Below, in pieces: positions 52,142 to 60,281 of a stretch of DNA of 64,000 bases; within the stretch, counting starts at the first letter, position 1; each line of letters opens with the position of its first letter. Below the pieces are notes generated by a model. That model made no database searches. It was not told where the DNA came from and saw only the letters and a list, made by a program, of their open reading frames with translations. Where the stretch lies: NCBI GenBank assembly GCA_963674745.2, contig CAXXDV010000001.1:2048001-2112000 (forward strand), written 5' to 3'. Source of the stretch: Desulfosudaceae bacterium. GTDB taxonomy: Bacteria > Desulfobacterota > Desulfobacteria > Desulfobacterales > Desulfosudaceae. A program made the position numbers and the translations under genes.

Positions 52142-52498
52142 TTAGCCCCTGTTTTTTCCAGAGGGGGCTACGGATTTTCGTAAAACACTAATACAGAAAT
52201 TATTAAGGCTGTCTCCGGACTGTAATGCCTTTATTGCTAAAGCCTTGTGAAGATCACTTCCCGTACGCAATTGAAACTTGCCAGAATATCGTTTATCGCT
52301 CGTGGAGGGTGGTAAAGGCCGGCCGTCTTTTTTATAAGTGACGATCCATTCATCAACTATACGGCAGAGTTGACGATAAACTTTTTCTTCGTTGTCTCCG
52401 TGGCAACACTTACCGATCCATCCCGGCACAGAACCGACATAGCATTTATCTTCATCTGACCACTCAACAATTTTCAAATAACGATCTCTATCTTTCAT
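52142..52498 (-). CDS. hicB: HicB family antitoxin (cassette)
   Basis: VEWSDED.CYVG..P, YSGKF.LR...LH..L RHH tail. Confidence 0.9.
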   Translation of the reverse strand: MKDRDRYLKIVEWSDEDKCYVGSVPGWIGKCCHGDNEEKVYRQLCRIVDEWIVTYKKDGRPLPPSTSDKRYSGKFQLRTGSDLHKALAIKALQSGDSLNNFCISVLRKSVAPSGKNRG

Positions 52499-52689
52499 TA
52501 TTTGGCCTCCTCAATCTTCTGCTTGACAATTTTTTCCTGATAAGGCTTTGCATCATCACCAAGTTGACCTGAGACTGTGACAGCAACGCCTTTTTCATGT
52601 AAGAAATTTTGATGGCTACCTTTTCCGCCCCGATTAACAAAACCGGCATTCTCAAGGTCTTTGATTAGTTGACGAAGTTTTCTTGGCAT
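52498..52689 (-). CDS. hicA: HicA family toxin (cassette)
   Basis: LE.AGF...GKGSH..F.H. Confidence 0.9.
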   Translation of the reverse strand: MPRKLRQLIKDLENAGFVNRGGKGSHQNFLHEKGVAVTVSGQLGDDAKPYQEKIVKQKIEEAK

Positions 52690-52737: not shown

Positions 52738-53215
52738 TTATACGGTTTCCCCTATTACCTTATTCATCTTTATACATTCAAGTTGAGTCCCATCAGGCAA
52801 CTCATGAAAATCTGTTCCGTTTTCAACATAACCATGGCGTATGTAAAAGTCCGACGCATTGATTGTAGAACAGAGATGCAGTTGATGAATATTTTTTTCC
52901 TAAAGAGATCGCTTTGAGTTTAAATAAAATTTTTCTGCCTATCCCTATCCCTTTTGAATTTGGGTGTACATAAATCGCACTTATTTCTTTATTCTTTATG
53001 TCAAGAATACCAAACCCTGACAAATTGACTTCTTGTTCCGCAACGATAATGACTTTTTCTTGTATAGCACTCTCGTAAATTTCAGGAAGAAGAATATTTG
53101 TCCATTTATCTATGCTTTCCGGGCTGTAATAGTCCTTGCACAACCATCGAATGGAGGCTTTGTGGCATTTTGATATTTCTTCTAAATCATATGTTGTCGC
53201 CAGTCGTATCTGCAT
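52738..53215 (-). pseudogene. GNAT acetyltransferase cassette gene, frameshifted at A7 run (52892-52898)
   Basis: IYVHP..KGIGIGRKI; removing one A continues ...GKNIHQLHLCSTINASDFYIRHGY...MNKVIGETV*. Confidence 0.8.
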
Positions 53216-53346
53216 TTTTTTTACGTATAACGTCTTCAGCCAAAGGGCGCCAGGGCTTCCACTAACTTGCCTAAAATTAATTTATGTTCAATCCCCATGG
53301 TTGTTCGAAACCCGAGTGCCCTGGCTGTCCACTTGAGCTTCTTGGT

Positions 53347-54056
53347 GTGTGCCGGGCACGGCACATGTTCTTAAAAGTGAGCCAAGGCTATCATATATTT
53401 GATAATTTTGGCAAGTCTTAGACCCAGCCTGATGGAGGCGAAGGGTGTAGCGGTAGTGCAACGGGGTACCGGTGACGGTGCTTCGGGAGGAAGCCGCCCT
53501 GCTGCGGCAGGGTACCGCGAAGGTACGGGATGACGCACAGGAATCGAGTATAAGGCGCGCACGCCGGGACGAGTCTGCACAACAAGGCAAAGTCCTCTAT
53601 CCATCTTAAGGCGTGTCCGTAAACTCGGCATTTACGTACCGAAAGACACGTGCTTACCCCGGGAGATCTCTCCTGTGCCGTACAACGGCTGAGGGTCGGG
53701 TAACCGGCCCTGACCGCAGGGGAGAAGTCAGCAGAAGGCATAGTAGCCGGCGGAAACGAGCCGGGCCTCCCTTAAGCGGGAGAAGTATACCCGGAGGACT
53801 CACCCCGGTGAAGGCCGGAACGGTGCCCGGACCGAATGGCACGGGTAAATGGTGGTGGCAAGTAAGGGAGTATCTCTTACGGGGATAATGCGGCAGCTGC
53901 CGAAATTCACGTAGCGAGCTTTCTCTGAAAACCCGGTGGAACTGGTGGGATAACTCACAGCCGGTCTCATCAGTACCAGCCGAACCGCCTTGGTACGTGA
54001 TCCGTATGCCAGGTGGTGTGGGAGGGGGTAGCCGTGAGGCTACTCCCTATCCCAAT
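53347..54056 (+). mobile_element. ORF-less group IIC-attC intron (710 nt) inserted inverted in an attC
   Basis: 5' GTGTG; CTTACCCCGGGAGATCT and GAGAAGTCAGCAGAAGGCATAGTA landmarks; domain V GAACCGCC..GTACG..CCGTATGCC.GGTGGTGT (CGC triad) at 53982-54020; domain VI ending CCTATCCCAAT. Removing it restores CTTGGT|TATAAG. Confidence 0.9.
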
Positions 54057-54065
54057 TATAAGGAT

Positions 54066-54512
54066 TTAATATGGGTTCTTATATGGTCCCTCCCAGATTC
54101 CCGACAAAACGATCGTTGCTGTAGAAGCACTACGAGTTCTGAAAGTTGCATATCCAGTCTCTCCAGGCTCCAATTTGGGATATATCAGTCGTGTCTTTTC
54201 CCCAACTACTTGTCCATCTTGATCAAGCTCGACGAAGAATACTTCACTTGGGAGTGGTAACTTGCCATTGTATGAAACTCGGCAAGTAAGCCCAGAGATA
54301 GGGTGACAATTATTGATGGTGAATATCTTCTGCAAGTCTCCAGTCAGTTTCATAACGGGAACGCACCAGCCATCCTCGTTGGGGACCATTCCGTACTTAC
54401 TGCAATCTTGGGGATCATAGACTCCTGAGCAGCTTAATACAGCAGAGAAAAGGAGTGCTGAAGCAACCCTGAAAATCAACCTCAAATATTTTATTTCTTG
54501 TCTTTGTTGCAT
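54066..54512 (-). CDS. Hypothetical lipoprotein (cassette)
   Basis: Lipobox VLSC; fills the cassette. Confidence 0.75.
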   Translation of the reverse strand: MQQRQEIKYLRLIFRVASALLFSAVLSCSGVYDPQDCSKYGMVPNEDGWCVPVMKLTGDLQKIFTINNCHPISGLTCRVSYNGKLPLPSEVFFVELDQDGQVVGEKTRLIYPKLEPGETGYATFRTRSASTATIVLSGIWEGPYKNPY

Positions 54513-54729
54513 ACCTTATAACGTCTCAAGCCAATGGAAACCAGGGCTTCCACCAGCTTGGTTAAAGATTATGGTTGTTCAGTTCCCCTAATTTTTCAAA
54601 ACCAGAGTGCCCTGGTTGTCCACTTGAGCTTGATTGTTGAACGAAGCCGCTACGCGGCGGATTAATAAAAAACAAGGTATACTCCAATACGTGCTCAATT
54701 ACGGGCACCCCCAATAAAAGGAGTATACC

Positions 54730-55634
54730 ATGAACGATTCGGAAGTAAAACGTTTCAACCGGCTTTATGAGCGGCACCTGGAGTTGCTCAAGCTTCAGGG
54801 GATGAGTCCGAGGACCATTGATCTCTATGCCCGTTCAGTCCGCCGCATTCGTAACCATTTTGATTGTTGTCCCGACCATTTACGTCCGGAACAATTGGAA
54901 GGTTATTTCTCTCAGCTGGTGGATAGCCATTCCTGGAGCACGGTCAGGGTTGACCGTAACGGCTTGCAGTTCTTCTGGCGGTATGTGCTCGGAAAGGACT
55001 GGGAATGGATCAAGATCGTCAAACCGCCGAAAGTCAAAACCATACCGGACATTCTTACCGTTTCCGAAGTTGAACGGATCATCGGCAAAACCAAGAAATT
55101 GCGTTACCGGGTATTTCTGCTGACAACCTATTCCATGGGATTGCGTCTGGAAGAGACGTTGTCCCTTCAGATCGGGGACATTGATGCTGAACGCAAAAAG
55201 GTCCATATCCGCCGGGGTAAAGGTCATAAGGACCGAATGCTGCCATTGCCGGATCTTACGTTGGAGGGCCTGCGGGAGCTTTGGCGTAAGCATCGTCATC
55301 CTAATTTGTTATTCCCCAATTGCAAGGGTTCTTTAGAAACCATCCGGGCGGCCACCAACTTTATGGATAAAGGCGGCTGTCAGAGGGCCATGAAAGTGGT
55401 CGTCGCCGAATGCGGCATTAAAAAAAAGTATCCATTCACTCCCTGCGTCACAGTTTTGCCACCCACCTGCTTGAACGCGGCTTAAGCCTCCGTCACATCC
55501 AGGCCCTGCTTGGCCATGCCAGTCCCTCCACAACAGCACGTTATACGCATCTAAGCGATATAACGGAGCAGGACAGCCTGACTGTCTTAAATGAGTTGAT
55601 AAATACAATCCATGTTGATTTTAGAAAGGTATGA
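54730..55634 (+). CDS. Tyrosine recombinase (~300 aa) requiring a -1 frameshift at 55422-55428
   Basis: Frame 0 has YSMGLR and GKGHKDR and stops at 55485. The -1 frame continues [17 protein letters not shown]...IQALLGH.S..TT.RYTH and ends at TGA 55634, overlapping the transposase ATG. Confidence 0.88.
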
Positions 55635-56686
55635 TTATGGAACTGGCATCAATTATTGATCAGTACGCTGACAGGTTTATGGAAAAGCACGGCCAAAAAG
55701 CCTTGCCGGGGCATCTTAAAGCCTTGCGTGCCATACGCAGGTGCCGCACTCCTGCCTCCGGAGAATTTCACGTTCAGTGCCCCGGCTGCCAACATGGACA
55801 ATGGAAACCAATGTCCTGCGGGCACCGGAGCTGCCCCAAATGCCAGAATCATGAGGCCAGTCAGTGGATCGACCGGCAGCAGGAGAAACTGCTTCCGGTG
55901 CTTTACTTTATGGCGACGTTTACGCTGCCGTTTGAACTCCGTCCGCTGGCCTGGAACAATCAGCGGGATGTATATTCAATCTTCTTTTCCTGCGTGTCCG
56001 AAACACTCAAGGATTTTGGCTTAAACCCGAAGCAAATGGGCGCAGAAATCGGTTTGACCATGGTTCTGCATACGAACACCCGAAGTCTGGATTATCATCC
56101 TCATATCCATGTGGTGGTGCCCGGCGGCGGGATTGATAAGCGCCGGCGACAATGGAAAAAGAAAAAAGGAAAATATCTGTTTAATGAGTTTAACCTGGCC
56201 ACGGTCTTTCGTGCCCGTTTTCTGGCCGCTTTAAGAAAAGCCGGCCTTTATGTGCCTAAAAATACACCTGCAAAATGGGTCGTGGATTGTGAAAAGGTCG
56301 GTAACGGGCTCCCGGTCATAAAGTACCTGTCCCGGTACTTATACCGGGGTGTAATCAGTGAAAAGAATATTGTGGCCAATGAAAATGGCCGGGTCACCTT
56401 CAGGTACACTGAAAGCGGCACCGGCCATACCCGTTATCGTACGCTTGACGGAGAAGATTTTCTCCAGCTCATTCTGCAGCATGTCCTGCCCAAGGGCTTC
56501 CGCAGGGTGCGCGATTACGGGTTTCTTCATGGCAACGCCAAAAAGACGCTGCAACTGGTGCAATTGATCCTGCATGTCCGGCTTGGAATAAAAACCCAAC
56601 GCCCGAGACCTGCTGTAAAGTGCCCCCGTTGCCACATCCCGATGGTCATCAAAGGGTTCCGTTACGCGGCCTGGAAGCCGGGATAA
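55631..56686 (+). CDS. IS91-family (HUH/Y2) transposase with Zn-binding N-terminus
   Basis: CRT..G...C..C...[39 protein letters not shown]. Confidence 0.95.
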
Positions 56687-56880
56687 AACGCTGACCCGGT
56701 TATGACCCGGCACAACAAAAAACAGGAGGCAATCACACCCATGAACAAAATTGTCTTTTTAAAACCTGCCTTCAGGTTAAGGGATCCCTGCGTCCTGCAA
56801 AAAAAGCACTTTCCAGGTTCACGCCTTTTGCCCTCTATCCCAAATTAAATATTTTCTTATAGTGAAAGTTCAGCGGGCTT

Positions 56881-56941
56881 GTTCAACCCCGGATAAGATC
56901 GTGGCTCGTTACCTCGCACGATCTATCCTTGTTCGTTATGA
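56881..56941 (+). other. Short (61-bp) attC site in + orientation belonging to the element
   Basis: R'' GTTCAAC; arms GGATA[A]GATCGTG[G]C / GCACGATCTATCC with two unpaired bases on the R'' arm; R' GTTATGA. Confidence 0.8.
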
Positions 56942-57069
56942 TTACCCCTTTCGCTACACAGAAAAAACCATGCGATATCAAAAAATTACACGCTTACAAA
57001 ATTTTGTTTAAAAGAATAAATTAAAAAGATTTTGTTATTGGAACAAAATTGCATTATCAGCGAATTTTA

Positions 57070-57285
57070 CTAAATGTTTTCCCAAATGTCATATCCAATA
57101 AAAATTATTATTAGAACACAAAACAAAAGAATTATAATTTTTCTTCTTCGTAGACATTTCGGGCATCGATAAACATATTTATATCTTTCTGTCAGCGACC
57201 AATGATTAAGCACAAGCTCAACATCTTTTTCAGATACTTCAATTCCGCAGGAGGCACATTTCATGTCATTTTTTGCTTTAATCAT
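57070..57285 (-). CDS. Small CxxC..CxxC protein with C-terminal TM (cassette, copy A)
   Basis: CASC...CPKC plus hydrophobic tail; duplicate at 59561. Confidence 0.7.
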   Translation of the reverse strand: MIKAKNDMKCASCGIEVSEKDVELVLNHWSLTERYKYVYRCPKCLRRRKIIILLFCVLIIIFIGYDIWENI

Positions 57286-57416
57286 AACGTCTTCAGCCAA
57301 AGGGCGCCAGGGCTTCCTCTGACTGACTTAAAGTCGGTTGATGTTCAATTTCCCGAGGATGTTCAAAACCCGAGTGCCCTGGCGATCCTTTTGCGCTGAA
57401 TTGTTGAGTGTAAATT

Positions 57417-57782
57417 TTATTTGTTTGGTTCTATAAAATCATCAACTTCAATATGAATATCCCGGCAACCAAGGAATTCCTCATCTACTTCGTATATATT
57501 TAATATACCACCATATTCAGCAGTGAGTTCACCATCCCAAAAGATAGCTTGAATTTCGATTAACACGTGATCTCCGACATGGATTGTTTCTTTTTCCTGA
57601 TTAACTATTACATCTTCGTTATGATAATCATTATCTTCTACAGCATAGTATATACTTACTTCTCTGTCTGTATCATTGAAAACTCTTACGCAAAAATTTT
57701 GCGGGTCATCAAAATCGAACGGATCAGTGCAGCCAAACATTATCAAAAAAATAACCGGTACTAATTTAATGAAAATATTCAC
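57417..57782 (-). CDS. Hypothetical acidic lipoprotein (cassette)
   Basis: Lipobox MFGC; fills the cassette. Confidence 0.75.
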   Translation of the reverse strand: MNIFIKLVPVIFLIMFGCTDPFDFDDPQNFCVRVFNDTDREVSIYYAVEDNDYHNEDVIVNQEKETIHVGDHVLIEIQAIFWDGELTAEYGGILNIYEVDEEFLGCRDIHIEVDDFIEPNK

Positions 57783-59287: not shown

Positions 59288-59560
59288 AGAGTTCCTTGAA
59301 GAAAGATAACGGCGGCCGCCAATGGGAGCCAGGGCTTCCACTGACTTGCCTTAAAATTGGTTGCTATTCAACTTCCCCCGAATGTTCAAACCCCGGGGTG
59401 CCCTGGCTATCCTTTGCGCGGCCTTGTTATGATTACCCCTTTCGCTACACAGAAAAAACCATGCGATATCAAAAAATTACACGCTTACAAAATTTTGTTT
59501 AAAAGAATAAATTAAAAAGATTTTGTTATTGGAACAAAATTGCATTATCAGTGAATTTTA

Positions 59561-59776
59561 CTAAATGTTTTCCCAAATGTCATATCCAATAAAAATTATT
59601 ATTAGAACACAAAACAAAAGAATTATAATTTTTCTTCTTCGTAGACATTTCGGGCATCGATAAACATATTTATATCTTTCTGTCAGCGACCAATGATTAA
59701 GCACAAGCTCAACATCTTTTTCAGATACTTCAATTCCGCAGGAGGCACATTTCATGTCATTTTTTGCTTTAATCAT
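59561..59776 (-). CDS. Small CxxC..CxxC protein with C-terminal TM (cassette, copy B)
   Basis: Protein identical to 57070-57285. Confidence 0.7.
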   Translation of the reverse strand: MIKAKNDMKCASCGIEVSEKDVELVLNHWSLTERYKYVYRCPKCLRRRKIIILLFCVLIIIFIGYDIWENI

Positions 59777-59828
59777 AACGGCGGCAGCCAAAGGGCGCCA
59801 GGGCCTTCTCTGACAGCCTTTAAGAAGG

Positions 59829-60281
59829 TTACTGTTCAGTTTTCTTCGAATGTTCCAAAACCCGAGTGCCCTGGCGATCCTCTTGCGCTGCCTGGTTAGT
59901 TTTCTTTTTATTTCTTATGGTTAGAATCATTTTATATAAATCCTCCATCTGCTCACCTGCCCATGGATACATACGATAATTTTTTGATCTGGGTAATATG
60001 CTATTGGCTATGTCGAAGCAATTGCAACTATCGATGTCAATTTGAAAATTCATTATGACCATTGATTTGGTTTTATTATCATAAATTTTGAGATCGGCCC
60101 ATGAACGGGGCCATTCACTGTTTCTCTCTACATAGAATGTTGTTTGTTTAATAACATCGGCAGTTTTATATTCTGGGTCGACGTTGAAAATTATTGCAGA
60201 AAAATGGCCAAACAAATAGGCAACAAAGATTGATAAAATCCATAAAACAAAAATCAAAATTTTTTTCTTTTTGCCTGTCAT
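59829..60281 (-). CDS. Hypothetical membrane-anchored protein (cassette); stop lies deep inside attC
   Basis: MTGKKKK plus TM segment. Confidence 0.7.
   Translation of the reverse strand: MTGKKKKILIFVLWILSIFVAYLFGHFSAIIFNVDPEYKTADVIKQTTFYVERNSEWPRSWADLKIYDNKTKSMVIMNFQIDIDSCNCFDIANSILPRSKNYRMYPWAGEQMEDLYKMILTIRNKKKTNQAAQEDRQGTRVLEHSKKTEQ

Follow-up and report, generated by a model that had tools for sequence, protein, structure and literature searches.

A conserved A-run splits the tyrosine recombinase gene of an attC-targeting IS91-family element and probably acts as a slippage site

The tyrosine recombinase gene considered here lies in a 64,000-nucleotide stretch of a Desulfosudaceae bacterium genome (contig CAXXDV010000001.1, positions 2,048,001 to 2,112,000; the whole stretch is referred to as the window, and positions are counted from its first letter), where it stands upstream of the transposase gene of an IS91-family element in an integron cassette array. 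The gene is broken at a run of eight A's: its first part is read in one frame, its second part, with the remaining catalytic residues, in the −1 frame. The break recurs at the same run in most related loci, and the out-of-frame half is as strongly conserved at the protein level as the half in front of it. We consider it very likely that the run is a site of programmed recoding, be it through slippage of the RNA polymerase or of the ribosome.

Results and Discussion

One catalytic domain in two reading frames

In the frame of the open reading frame 54730-55485, positions 55417-55431 read ATT AAA AAA AAG TAT. The eight A's occupy 55420-55427 and are followed by a G at 55428; the heptamer A_AAA_AAG (55422-55428) thus stands in the correct phase for a −1 slip, as a preliminary description of this DNA had claimed. 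Past the run, frame 0 continues for 18 codons to a TAA (55483-55485) that ends a product of 251 residues, and the −1 frame, taken from 55428, reads VSIHSLRH...LGH...RYTH over 68 codons down to a TGA at 55632-55634. Directly 5' of the run the −1 frame is shut by another TAA (55419-55421); it opens only within the run and contains no ATG, GTG or TTG until near its end. In consequence, the C-terminal part is reachable solely if the frame shifts at the run or immediately past it. Independent translation of this half, considered as a candidate, was ruled out by the same lack of start codons.

The catalytic set of tyrosine recombinases consists of R, K, HxxR, H/W and Y. Here, GLRLEE and GKGHKDR are encoded in frame 0 and HSLRH, LGH and RYTH in the −1 frame, and the two groups come together in one protein solely after a −1 shift. 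The Pfam profiles divide in the same manner: the frame-0 product matches Phage_int_SAM_4 (PF13495) and Phage_integrase (PF00589; profile positions 3-124 of 172, 52 bits), and the −1 piece matches Phage_integrase (positions 128-169, 55.9 bits); with a gathering cut-off of 27.1 bits and a joint cover of positions 3-169, this division of one profile between the two pieces indicates a single catalytic domain split in two. The HSLRH, LGH and RY motifs stand in the −1 frame only, in agreement with the preliminary description.

The break in the genomic copies and in read assemblies

Four copies of the 2.3-kb unit are present in the genome, 98-99% identical to each other. A8G is found in every copy, and their alignment is free of insertions and deletions from 54636 to 56858. 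Where the copies vary within the N-part, 26 sites fall in synonymous codons and 3 in non-synonymous ones; in the C-part, 7/7 variable sites are synonymous in the −1 frame. Two independent assemblies of public reads cross the run with 0 gaps (X1, a contig of 1011 nucleotides covering 55339-56349; X5, a contig of 412 nucleotides covering 55266-55661), both from runs deposited under the same organism label and both contigs, which may hide minor length variants; A8 is confirmed by these and by the contigs X16 and X17, and no insertion or deletion is listed at the run. Since the genome contains 1322 A/T runs of at least eight nucleotides, an A8 run by itself means little; it is the conservation of the frame break that lies above chance.

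The differences among the four copies are clustered in copy-specific blocks (55167-55265, 55721-55885 and 56316-56595; copies c4, c3 and c2), a pattern suggestive of recombination, or of gene conversion, between copies that had diverged.

Conservation of the break among close relatives

At E ≤0.001, 4051 database proteins matched the recombinase, mostly annotated as plain 251-residue "integrases". Among the 120 best (72-99% identity to the N-part), 96 are exactly 251 residues long and 15 more measure 242-252 residues; the only continuous full-length proteins are P0068 and P0095 (301 residues), in which the run is interrupted (IHKKV). Fifteen of these 120 were read individually, and eleven of the fifteen proceed through GIKKK into the frame-0 tail and end there. 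Among these eleven, the longer open reading frames (P0025, P0062, P0064, P0084, P0107) result from N-terminal extensions or an internal duplication and still end after the tail; P0019 is continuous through the run and disrupted afterwards, and P0120 regains the frame seven residues on, with HSLRH lost.

At the DNA level, 80 loci from one-per-species genomes (mostly metagenome-assembled genomes of Desulfobacterota) were compared, of which 71 could be scored; three others end before the run, and six are cut, interrupted or deleted just past it. A −1 shift is needed in 60 of the 71, a +1 shift in six, and five are in frame; the search for a conserved frame break at the same A-run, suggested in the preliminary description as a check, thus gave a clear answer in its favour. 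The −1 loci read ATT AAA AAA AAG (44), ATA AAA AAA AAG (6) or ATT/ATC AAA AAA AAA T (9), to which L038 is to be added, and all 60 hold an in-phase heptamer (A_AAA_AAG in 50, A_AAA_AAA in 10). One −1 locus, L043 (A9G), comes from the cultured Desulfocicer vacuolatum DSM 3385. Throughout the broken loci of this clade the run comprises 8 or 9 A's (66/66); in the six +1 loci it is one A shorter than in the nearest relatives. The five in-frame loci have either a changed run length (L014, A10G; L036, A9G; L078, A9G) or a run that is broken up (L063, L070). According to the p-distance table, L078 is only 3% apart from L085 (A8G), which belongs to the same metagenome-assembled genome.

Several relatives have suffered rearrangements in the vicinity of the run. 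In L017, L029, L038, L075 and the protein P0019, a foreign piece beginning TATG[C/T]CGAG follows directly after the HSLRH codons; in L038 this insert closes with the palindrome ATGCCGAGCTCGGCAT, which recalls a small inverted-repeat element that favours this conserved stretch as its target. Other sequences break into L067 and L084 at the same spot after HSLRH. L025 (2388-2500) has undergone an internal deletion that fuses the A-run directly to the right-end hairpin of the element, and possesses neither C-part nor transposase.

Wider distribution and a second broken lineage

When the relatives are grouped into 50% clusters, the nearest complete ones (48-53% identity) prove to be continuous, with lengths of 300-308 residues, e.g. 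GIQKKLTVHSLRH; the frame break has thus arisen secondarily, within one very successful clade. A more distant protein, P0155 (255 residues, 40% identical), stops shortly after GIKK, and eleven P0155-like metagenome loci (L093-L103) form a second lineage with the break at the same Lys-Lys site, ten of them in need of −1 and one of +1. The run of the −1 loci is A7G in eight (L093-L097, L099-L101), A8G in L098 and A9T in L102; it occurs in two phases, TTA AAA AAA G and CTT AAA AAA AG, and L099-L101 (CTT AAA AAA AGA) lack a canonical in-phase heptamer. Twelve more distant loci of the same metagenome set are in frame and without a run, and four are without the C-part. P0171 (258 residues) may represent a third broken lineage.

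In a midpoint-rooted FastTree phylogeny of 35 hand-picked N-half sequences, a thin sampling, the in-frame proteins P0125, P0127 and P0128 were placed between the two broken clades (local support 0.87-0.97), and the in-frame P0068, P0095, L070 and L063 were nested within the first one. This topology suggests at least two origins of the break plus some reversions.

Selection on both halves and the frame-0 stop

For 47 sequences of the −1 type, the median ratio of non-synonymous to synonymous substitution rates (dN/dS) was 0.099 for the C-part in the −1 frame (163 pairs) and 0.096 for the N-part (66 pairs), in contrast to 1.64 (198 pairs) for the C-part DNA read in frame 0 as a control. Variation 3' of the run amounted to 0.19, 0.10 and 0.48 at the three codon positions of the −1 frame, with third positions dominating. 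As the out-of-frame half reaches the same level as the N-half and differs from its own frame-0 reading, it appears to be translated; decay is thereby excluded, and either programmed recoding or a switch at the DNA level is left.

As protein, the frame-0 tail shows no constraint; the point at which the short product ends is conserved. The frame-0 stop is located 18 codons past KKK in 56/60 sequences and arises from the Leu-Ser codons of the −1 frame (G-L-S; 55477-55485 in the window). The Leu codon that creates it ends with A or G in 59/60 sequences (four different codons) versus 287/582 of the other Leu codons of the C-part, a contrast that is inflated by the relatedness of the sequences. This constitutes a hint that the short protein, or the point at which it terminates, matters; it is plausible that the 251-residue form is the dominant product and that it binds DNA.

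Passage of the run: polymerase or ribosome

By standard decoding, the gene would give rise to the 251-residue protein, which possesses the core-binding domain together with one half of the catalytic domain and should be unable to cleave DNA. The full-length recombinase of about 301 residues (junction IKKKV) would be obtained solely in that minority of cases in which expression involves a slip at the run. In the case of polymerase slippage, a fraction of the transcripts would receive one extra A (A8 to A9); a −1 slip of the ribosome on the in-phase A_AAA_AAG would be an alternative or additional route to the identical protein. Either way, the catalytic recombinase of an IS91-family, attC-targeting element would be kept low, at a level set by the element itself.

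We favour RNA polymerase slippage as the main route, at about even odds; the reasons to lean towards it are the length of the runs, the lack of stimulators, the tRNA set of the host, the +1 loci and the variable phase in the second lineage. The heptamer needs six A's, and the broken loci of this clade have at least two more. These extra A's come from the first Lys codon, which seems dispensable for the protein since the in-frame relatives carry H, T, Q or R there. No conserved structure was predicted by RNAalifold either 3' of the run (55 sequences, −30 to +110: −2.5 kcal/mol, only 3-bp hairpins more than 50 nucleotides away) or 5' of it (50 sequences, −100 to +5: −1.7 kcal/mol), and the consensus of the aligned loci has no element resembling a Shine-Dalgarno sequence near the run. 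The host genome encodes two tRNA-Lys(CUU) and one tRNA-Lys(UUU). In the accessible portion of Atkins et al. (2016), to which we refer throughout, the shiftiness of A_AAA_AAG in E. coli is attributed to its single tRNA-Lys, and the two tRNA-Lys of Thermus are tied to its use of polymerase slippage. According to Antonov et al. (2013; likewise cited from its accessible portion), families with ribosomal frameshifting keep the direction of the shift and families with transcriptional realignment do not, and A-runs longer than 7 are listed as transcriptional slippage sites. The A8 and A9 runs of this clade (66/66) exceed this length, and the second lineage, mostly A7, is borderline; the direction is +1 in 6/66 loci of this clade and in 1/11 of the second lineage, scattered singletons that are possibly dead copies.

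Several observations weigh against a predominant role of the polymerase. Runs of A7-A8 are short for efficient polymerase slippage, as judged from work on E. coli. The +1 loci stand singly beside A9 relatives in the p-distance table and may be dead, and the canonical heptamer in 60/60 −1 loci together with the −1 direction of 60/66 broken loci fits the ribosomal route equally well. The one RNA-library contig that crosses the run (X16, a relative, 55387-55543) has 0 gaps: the dominant RNA form is unedited, minor forms being invisible in contigs. The in-frame variants L014, L036 and L078 demonstrate that the run alters at the DNA level too, and the nesting of in-frame relatives inside the broken clade implies that the break is dispensable. 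Finally, the occurrence of slippage, the step at which it acts, how efficient it is and whether the 251-residue product has a role are all read here from the comparison of sequences, and the 24 sequencing runs found are contigs, from which rare variants have been dropped. As regards the preliminary description, its proposal that a slippery site gates the catalytic half gains support from the conservation, the dN/dS values and the second lineage; as to its ranking of the ribosomal before the transcriptional mechanism, we lean the reverse way on indirect evidence.

Programmed −1 frameshifting on A_AAA_AAG or A_AAA_AAA as the main or only route, as in the OrfAB products of the IS3 family and in dnaX, is a serious candidate that we nevertheless regard as doubtful. 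The correct phase of the heptamer in every −1 locus of the clade (50 and 10, respectively), the prevalence of the −1 direction (60/66 and, in the second lineage, 10/11), the TAA that closes the −1 frame directly 5' of the run and leaves a minimal overlap, and the unedited run in X16 are all in line with it. However, neither a conserved 3' stem-loop or pseudoknot nor a 5' Shine-Dalgarno-like element was detected among the aligned loci, the runs are longer than a heptamer demands, although the protein accepts other residues at this position, L099-L101 do without the canonical in-phase heptamer, and a minority of loci need +1; moreover, with two tRNA-Lys(CUU) genes in the host, AAG would be a poor slip codon following Atkins et al. 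(2016). A switch at the DNA level, in which replication slippage turns the run ON and OFF, assemblies mostly capture the OFF state and rare A9 alleles make the recombinase, might be seen in the differing run lengths of close relatives (L078 versus L085 in one metagenome-assembled genome), in the in-frame L014 (A10G) and L036 (A9G) and in three independent A9-to-A8 changes among the T-type loci. Yet a single OFF state prevails: the ATT-type loci include 44 A8G (−1) versus one A9G and no A10, and the four diverged genomic copies are all in that state, although a switch that confined movement to ON alleles should leave many recent copies ON. X1 and X5 likewise display no length variant at the run, with the proviso that contigs can mask minor ones; phase variation is thus decidedly improbable in our estimation.

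That only the 251-residue protein is functional, and the 68 codons 3' of it are kept for some other reason, e.g. as a nucleotide signal for the transposase gene, would agree with the conserved frame-0 stop (56/60) and the A/G-ending Leu codon (59/60 versus 287/582). The concentration of variation at third positions of the −1 frame, the intact HxxR, H and Y motifs, the in-frame relatives that make the same protein continuously, and the lack of conserved RNA structure in that stretch speak for translation of the second half instead and render this explanation very improbable. Damage, i.e. an error of sequencing or assembly or a decaying pseudogene, was raised as a caveat in the preliminary description; it might be invoked because A/T runs abound in the genome (1322 of at least eight nucleotides) and because some related loci are truly damaged elsewhere, by insertions after HSLRH (L017, L029, L038, L067, L075, L084) or by deletion (L025). 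It is scarcely credible in view of the concordance of the four copies and two independent read assemblies (X1, X5), a break common to 60/71 loci from many assemblies, a dN/dS of 0.10 for the out-of-frame half, and the same feature in the second lineage; we regard error and decay as already refuted by the copies, the loci, the reads and dN/dS.

A more far-reaching scenario, which we put forward tentatively and rate as rather unlikely, would be a built-in rheostat. A slip-prone A-run, set exactly where the beta-hairpin part with the Lys meets the HxxR helix of the catalytic domain, would have arisen on two or more occasions among the integron-like recombinases of IS91 elements that target attC; an abundant, non-catalytic 251-residue protein would recognise folded attC-like sites, and the rare full-length enzyme would integrate or excise the element as a cassette mimic, with the conserved frame-0 stop reflecting selection on the short protein. 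In such a rheostat, the 251-residue protein could mark or shield the cassette-like end of its own element or compete with the integron integrase of the host.

The start of the transposase gene

The transposase translation shows the motifs HPHIH and YLSRYLY. In the window, the recombinase TGA (55632-55634) overlaps an ATG (55631-55633) in the sequence ATGA, the ATG at 55631 being an alternative start in this copy only. Such an overlap is present in 7/76 scored sequences (the window and 6 of 75 loci); the usual 68-codon half is present in four of these seven, among them the window. The conserved layout is a different one: the recombinase stop is followed by 2 nucleotides and then an ATG (55637 in the window), and a Shine-Dalgarno sequence for the transposase, AGGAGG/GAAGG, is located within the end of the recombinase gene. 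RNAalifold detected no conserved, occluding structure around the transposase start across the loci. The transposase hence looks able to initiate by itself; translational coupling of the two genes is possible but not indicated, because the conserved start is separate from the stop, the Shine-Dalgarno sequence is strong and a conserved structure is absent. The overlap of the −1-frame stop with the transposase start, pointed out in the preliminary description, is thus real in the window copy and no general feature, and the idea that rare full-length recombinase couples translation of the transposase finds no support as it was worded, given the conserved stop, 2-nucleotide spacer and ATG with their Shine-Dalgarno sequence.

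Ends of the element and its attC target

The element spans 54636-56937 and adjoins an attC site at one end of the latter; its own ends, GAACGAAG... and ...CTTGTTC, are each flanked by GTT (see Table 1). Elements of the IS91 family have no terminal inverted repeats of the DDE type, make no target duplication and insert beside a fixed tetranucleotide (GAAC/CAAG). In other genomes, the flanks are also imperfect palindromes.

At the left end, the box reads GTTGAAC or GTTGGAC in 64/66 loci, with GGAC rather than GAAC in 20/66. GTTGAAC fits the consensus of the core site, GTTRRRY; the native attC boxes in the window differ from it (GTTGAGT, GTTAAGT, GTTATGA and others). In 66 loci the left-end hairpin is preserved while its loop varies. 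On the right, the flanks vary among the copies (GTTATGA, GTTATGT, GTTAGAA); the right flank in the window is identical to the stretch after the uninterrupted attC at 59398, and in other genomes it equals a canonical core, e.g. GTTAGGC, GTTATGC or GTTCGGC. The left and right boxes covary: 20 loci have GTTGAAC with GTTCAAC and 8 have GTTGGAC with GTCCAAC; six are mismatched, and the opposite mismatch occurs in none (two rows were re-read by eye). The stem of the right end shows compensatory changes as well, GATTGTG being accompanied by CACAATC in 6/6 cases.

Compared with the layout of a cassette, the element has the expected parts: G↓TTGAAC on the left and, on the right, GTTCAAC, an imperfect stem and TTGTTCG↓TT, the outer boxes being complementary. 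As the left and right boxes can pair only in a circular junction, the element resembles a cassette mimic; it looks like an IS91-family, attC-targeting mimic of this kind, for which a circular form is predicted; the read contigs gave no usable joint of such a circle.

Table 1. Position of the recombinase and transposase genes, the ends of the element and neighbouring features in the window.
Feature	Position	Strand	Description
HicB	52142-52498	−	Cassette gene; Pfam
HicA	52498-52689	−	Cassette gene; Pfam
GNAT acetyltransferase	52823-53215	−	Cassette gene; Pfam
Resident integron attC	54519-54635	−	Array on the minus strand; left flanks of the four copies loosely alike, within the family of attC-like repeats
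Left GTT junction triplet	54636-54638	+	GTTGAAC together with the next four bases
Left end	54639-54729	+	Hairpin GCCGC-TAC-GCGGC (54646-54658), leader and Shine-Dalgarno sequence of the recombinase; identical in the four copies
Recombinase N-part	54730-55428	+	Frame 0, 233 codons; SAM-like core-binding domain and first part of the catalytic domain
A8G slip site (putative)	55420-55428	+	A8G invariant in the four genomic copies; A8-A9 in 66/66 frame-broken relatives
Recombinase C-part	55428-55634	+	−1 frame, 68 codons and TGA; HSLRH, LGH, RY nucleophile
Frame-0 tail and TAA of the 251-residue product	55429-55485	+	18 codons; frame-0 dN/dS 1.64, stop kept in 56/60
IS91-family Y2 HUH transposase	55637-56686	+	NCBIfam NF033538, 389 bits (cut-off 125); Pfam Zn_Tnp_IS91 and Y2_Tnp (PF14319, PF04986)
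Right end, attC-like hairpin	56881-56934	+	GTTCAAC (56881-87), GGATAAGATCGTG (56891-903), loop, CACGATCTATCC (56917-28), TTGTTC (56929-34)
Right GTT junction triplet	56935-56937	+	Followed by the rest of the target core box (ATGA) and the resident cassette

The surrounding cassette array

From about 53240 onwards, the window consists of an integron cassette array on the minus strand. Nine attC-like repeats with the core [G/A]TGCCCTGG are found at 53316, 54607, 57374, 58362, 59398, 59866, 60394, 61483 and 63805, and a full, true intI gene is located 5.4 kb past the right end of the window (G000:C1:2117407-2118342). Three cassette genes were assigned by Pfam (see Table 1); the small open reading frames 54066-54512, 57070-57300 and 57417-57782 gave no Pfam match. 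The cassette to the right of the element (56938-57400), with the open reading frame 57070-57300, is nearly duplicated at 59420-59870 (open reading frame 59561-59791), both frames being on the minus strand; owing to this near-duplicate 2.5 kb away, an uninterrupted form of the target attC is available.

A group II intron lies at 53353-53770 on the plus strand (Rfam D1-D4 models at 53466-53653 and 53690-53767). It appears to begin with GTGTG right after the ...gagcttcttg of the attC at 53316, i.e. at the same attC position and on the same strand as the IS91-type element one cassette on.

Relation to known recombinases and recoding systems

By its profile matches, the recombinase is closest to the integron integrases and lies far below their cut-off: against the IntI model TIGR02249 (cut-off 265 bits), its two parts score 89.3 and 52.6 bits and the continuous relative P0068 scores 155 bits, versus 415-429 bits for the three true intI genes of the genome. 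The N-part matches positions 8-179 and the C-part positions 259-307 of 315; the unmatched positions 180-258 signify that the additional domain specific to IntI is missing. Tyrosine recombinases of IS91/IS3 transposons are placed in an integron-like subgroup in the accessible part of Smyshlyaev et al. (bioRxiv 10.1101/542381), and a recombinase that resembles IntI and lacks positions 180-258 of the profile fits this subgroup. In PMC9229058, as far as that text was accessible, the IS91-like element ISShvi3 adjoins an attC site. The element of the window shares with such IS91 elements and their upstream tyrosine recombinase gene the gene pair and its order, the NF033538 transposase and the attC location; in contrast, a frame break is not mentioned for the recombinases in the accessible parts of these two sources, and the relatives of 48-53% identity are continuous. 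Other attC parasites, namely group IIC-attC introns and IS1111-attC elements, are named in the same portion of PMC9229058. They, too, occupy one fixed attC position in opposite orientation to the cassettes, and the group II intron of the window occupies the corresponding place in the adjacent attC; unlike them, the present element combines an HUH-Y2 transposase with a tyrosine recombinase and has cassette-like ends able to form an attC-like site in the circle.

Recoding at A-runs in insertion sequences is textbook knowledge. The OrfA/OrfAB arrangement of the IS3 family (IS911, IS150, IS3) is alike in that a gene of a mobile element carries the same heptamer, a short product of the upstream frame binds DNA, the catalytic part is gained through slippage, and little of the enzyme is made, in an amount that the element itself dictates, features which in the present case are read from the sequence. 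It is unlike in that a tyrosine recombinase takes the place of a DDE transposase, and an accessory gene that of the transposase gene. IS911 possesses a structured 3' stimulator, a three-way junction (Atkins et al. 2016); none is conserved here, and the frames overlap only in the run. Transcriptional realignment, as in the IS630, IS1 and IS5-type transposases and in the dnaX gene of Thermus (Antonov et al. 2013; Atkins et al. 2016), likewise takes place at runs of 7-10 A's in mobile-element genes, with −1 or +1 relatives and no ribosomal stimulators; the likeness to Thermus extends to a host with two tRNA-Lys species (Atkins et al. 2016). Compared with these systems, the present runs (A8 and A9, with A7 for the second lineage) lie near the lower limit of the lengths cited, the gene family is another one, and the case is known from its sequence. 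E. coli dnaX, with its tau and gamma products, has in common the in-phase A_AAA_AAG and two products from one gene; it differs by an upstream Shine-Dalgarno-like element and a downstream hairpin (Antonov et al. 2013), neither of which is conserved here, and its shift shortens the protein, whereas the shift proposed here would complete it.

A literature search that had ISfinder outside its scope turned up no published account of frameshifting or slippage in a tyrosine recombinase, whether associated with IS91 or not. In two supplements of Antonov et al. (2013), the terms "integrase", "Phage_integrase", "Phage_int_SAM" and "Y2_Tnp" are absent, although a further supplement may list such a cluster; apparent mentions of "IS91" in Atkins et al. 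(2016) and Antonov et al. (2013) were rejected, as they refer to IS911 in the text as far as it is displayed. The kind of recoding is therefore known, its use in a tyrosine recombinase or in the IS91 family was not found described, and the element itself is little described.

Recoding at A-runs classically throttles the transposases of insertion sequences; here, it would be a tyrosine recombinase that is throttled, by an active site cut in two. Genes of this type are systematically mis-annotated as short integrases or pseudogenes. The broken, the reverted and the second, apparently independent broken lineage offer a natural comparison of transcriptional and ribosomal slippage across hosts with one or two tRNA-Lys species, and the split gene opens a way to study the means by which a parasite of attC sites in integrons may limit its own activity.

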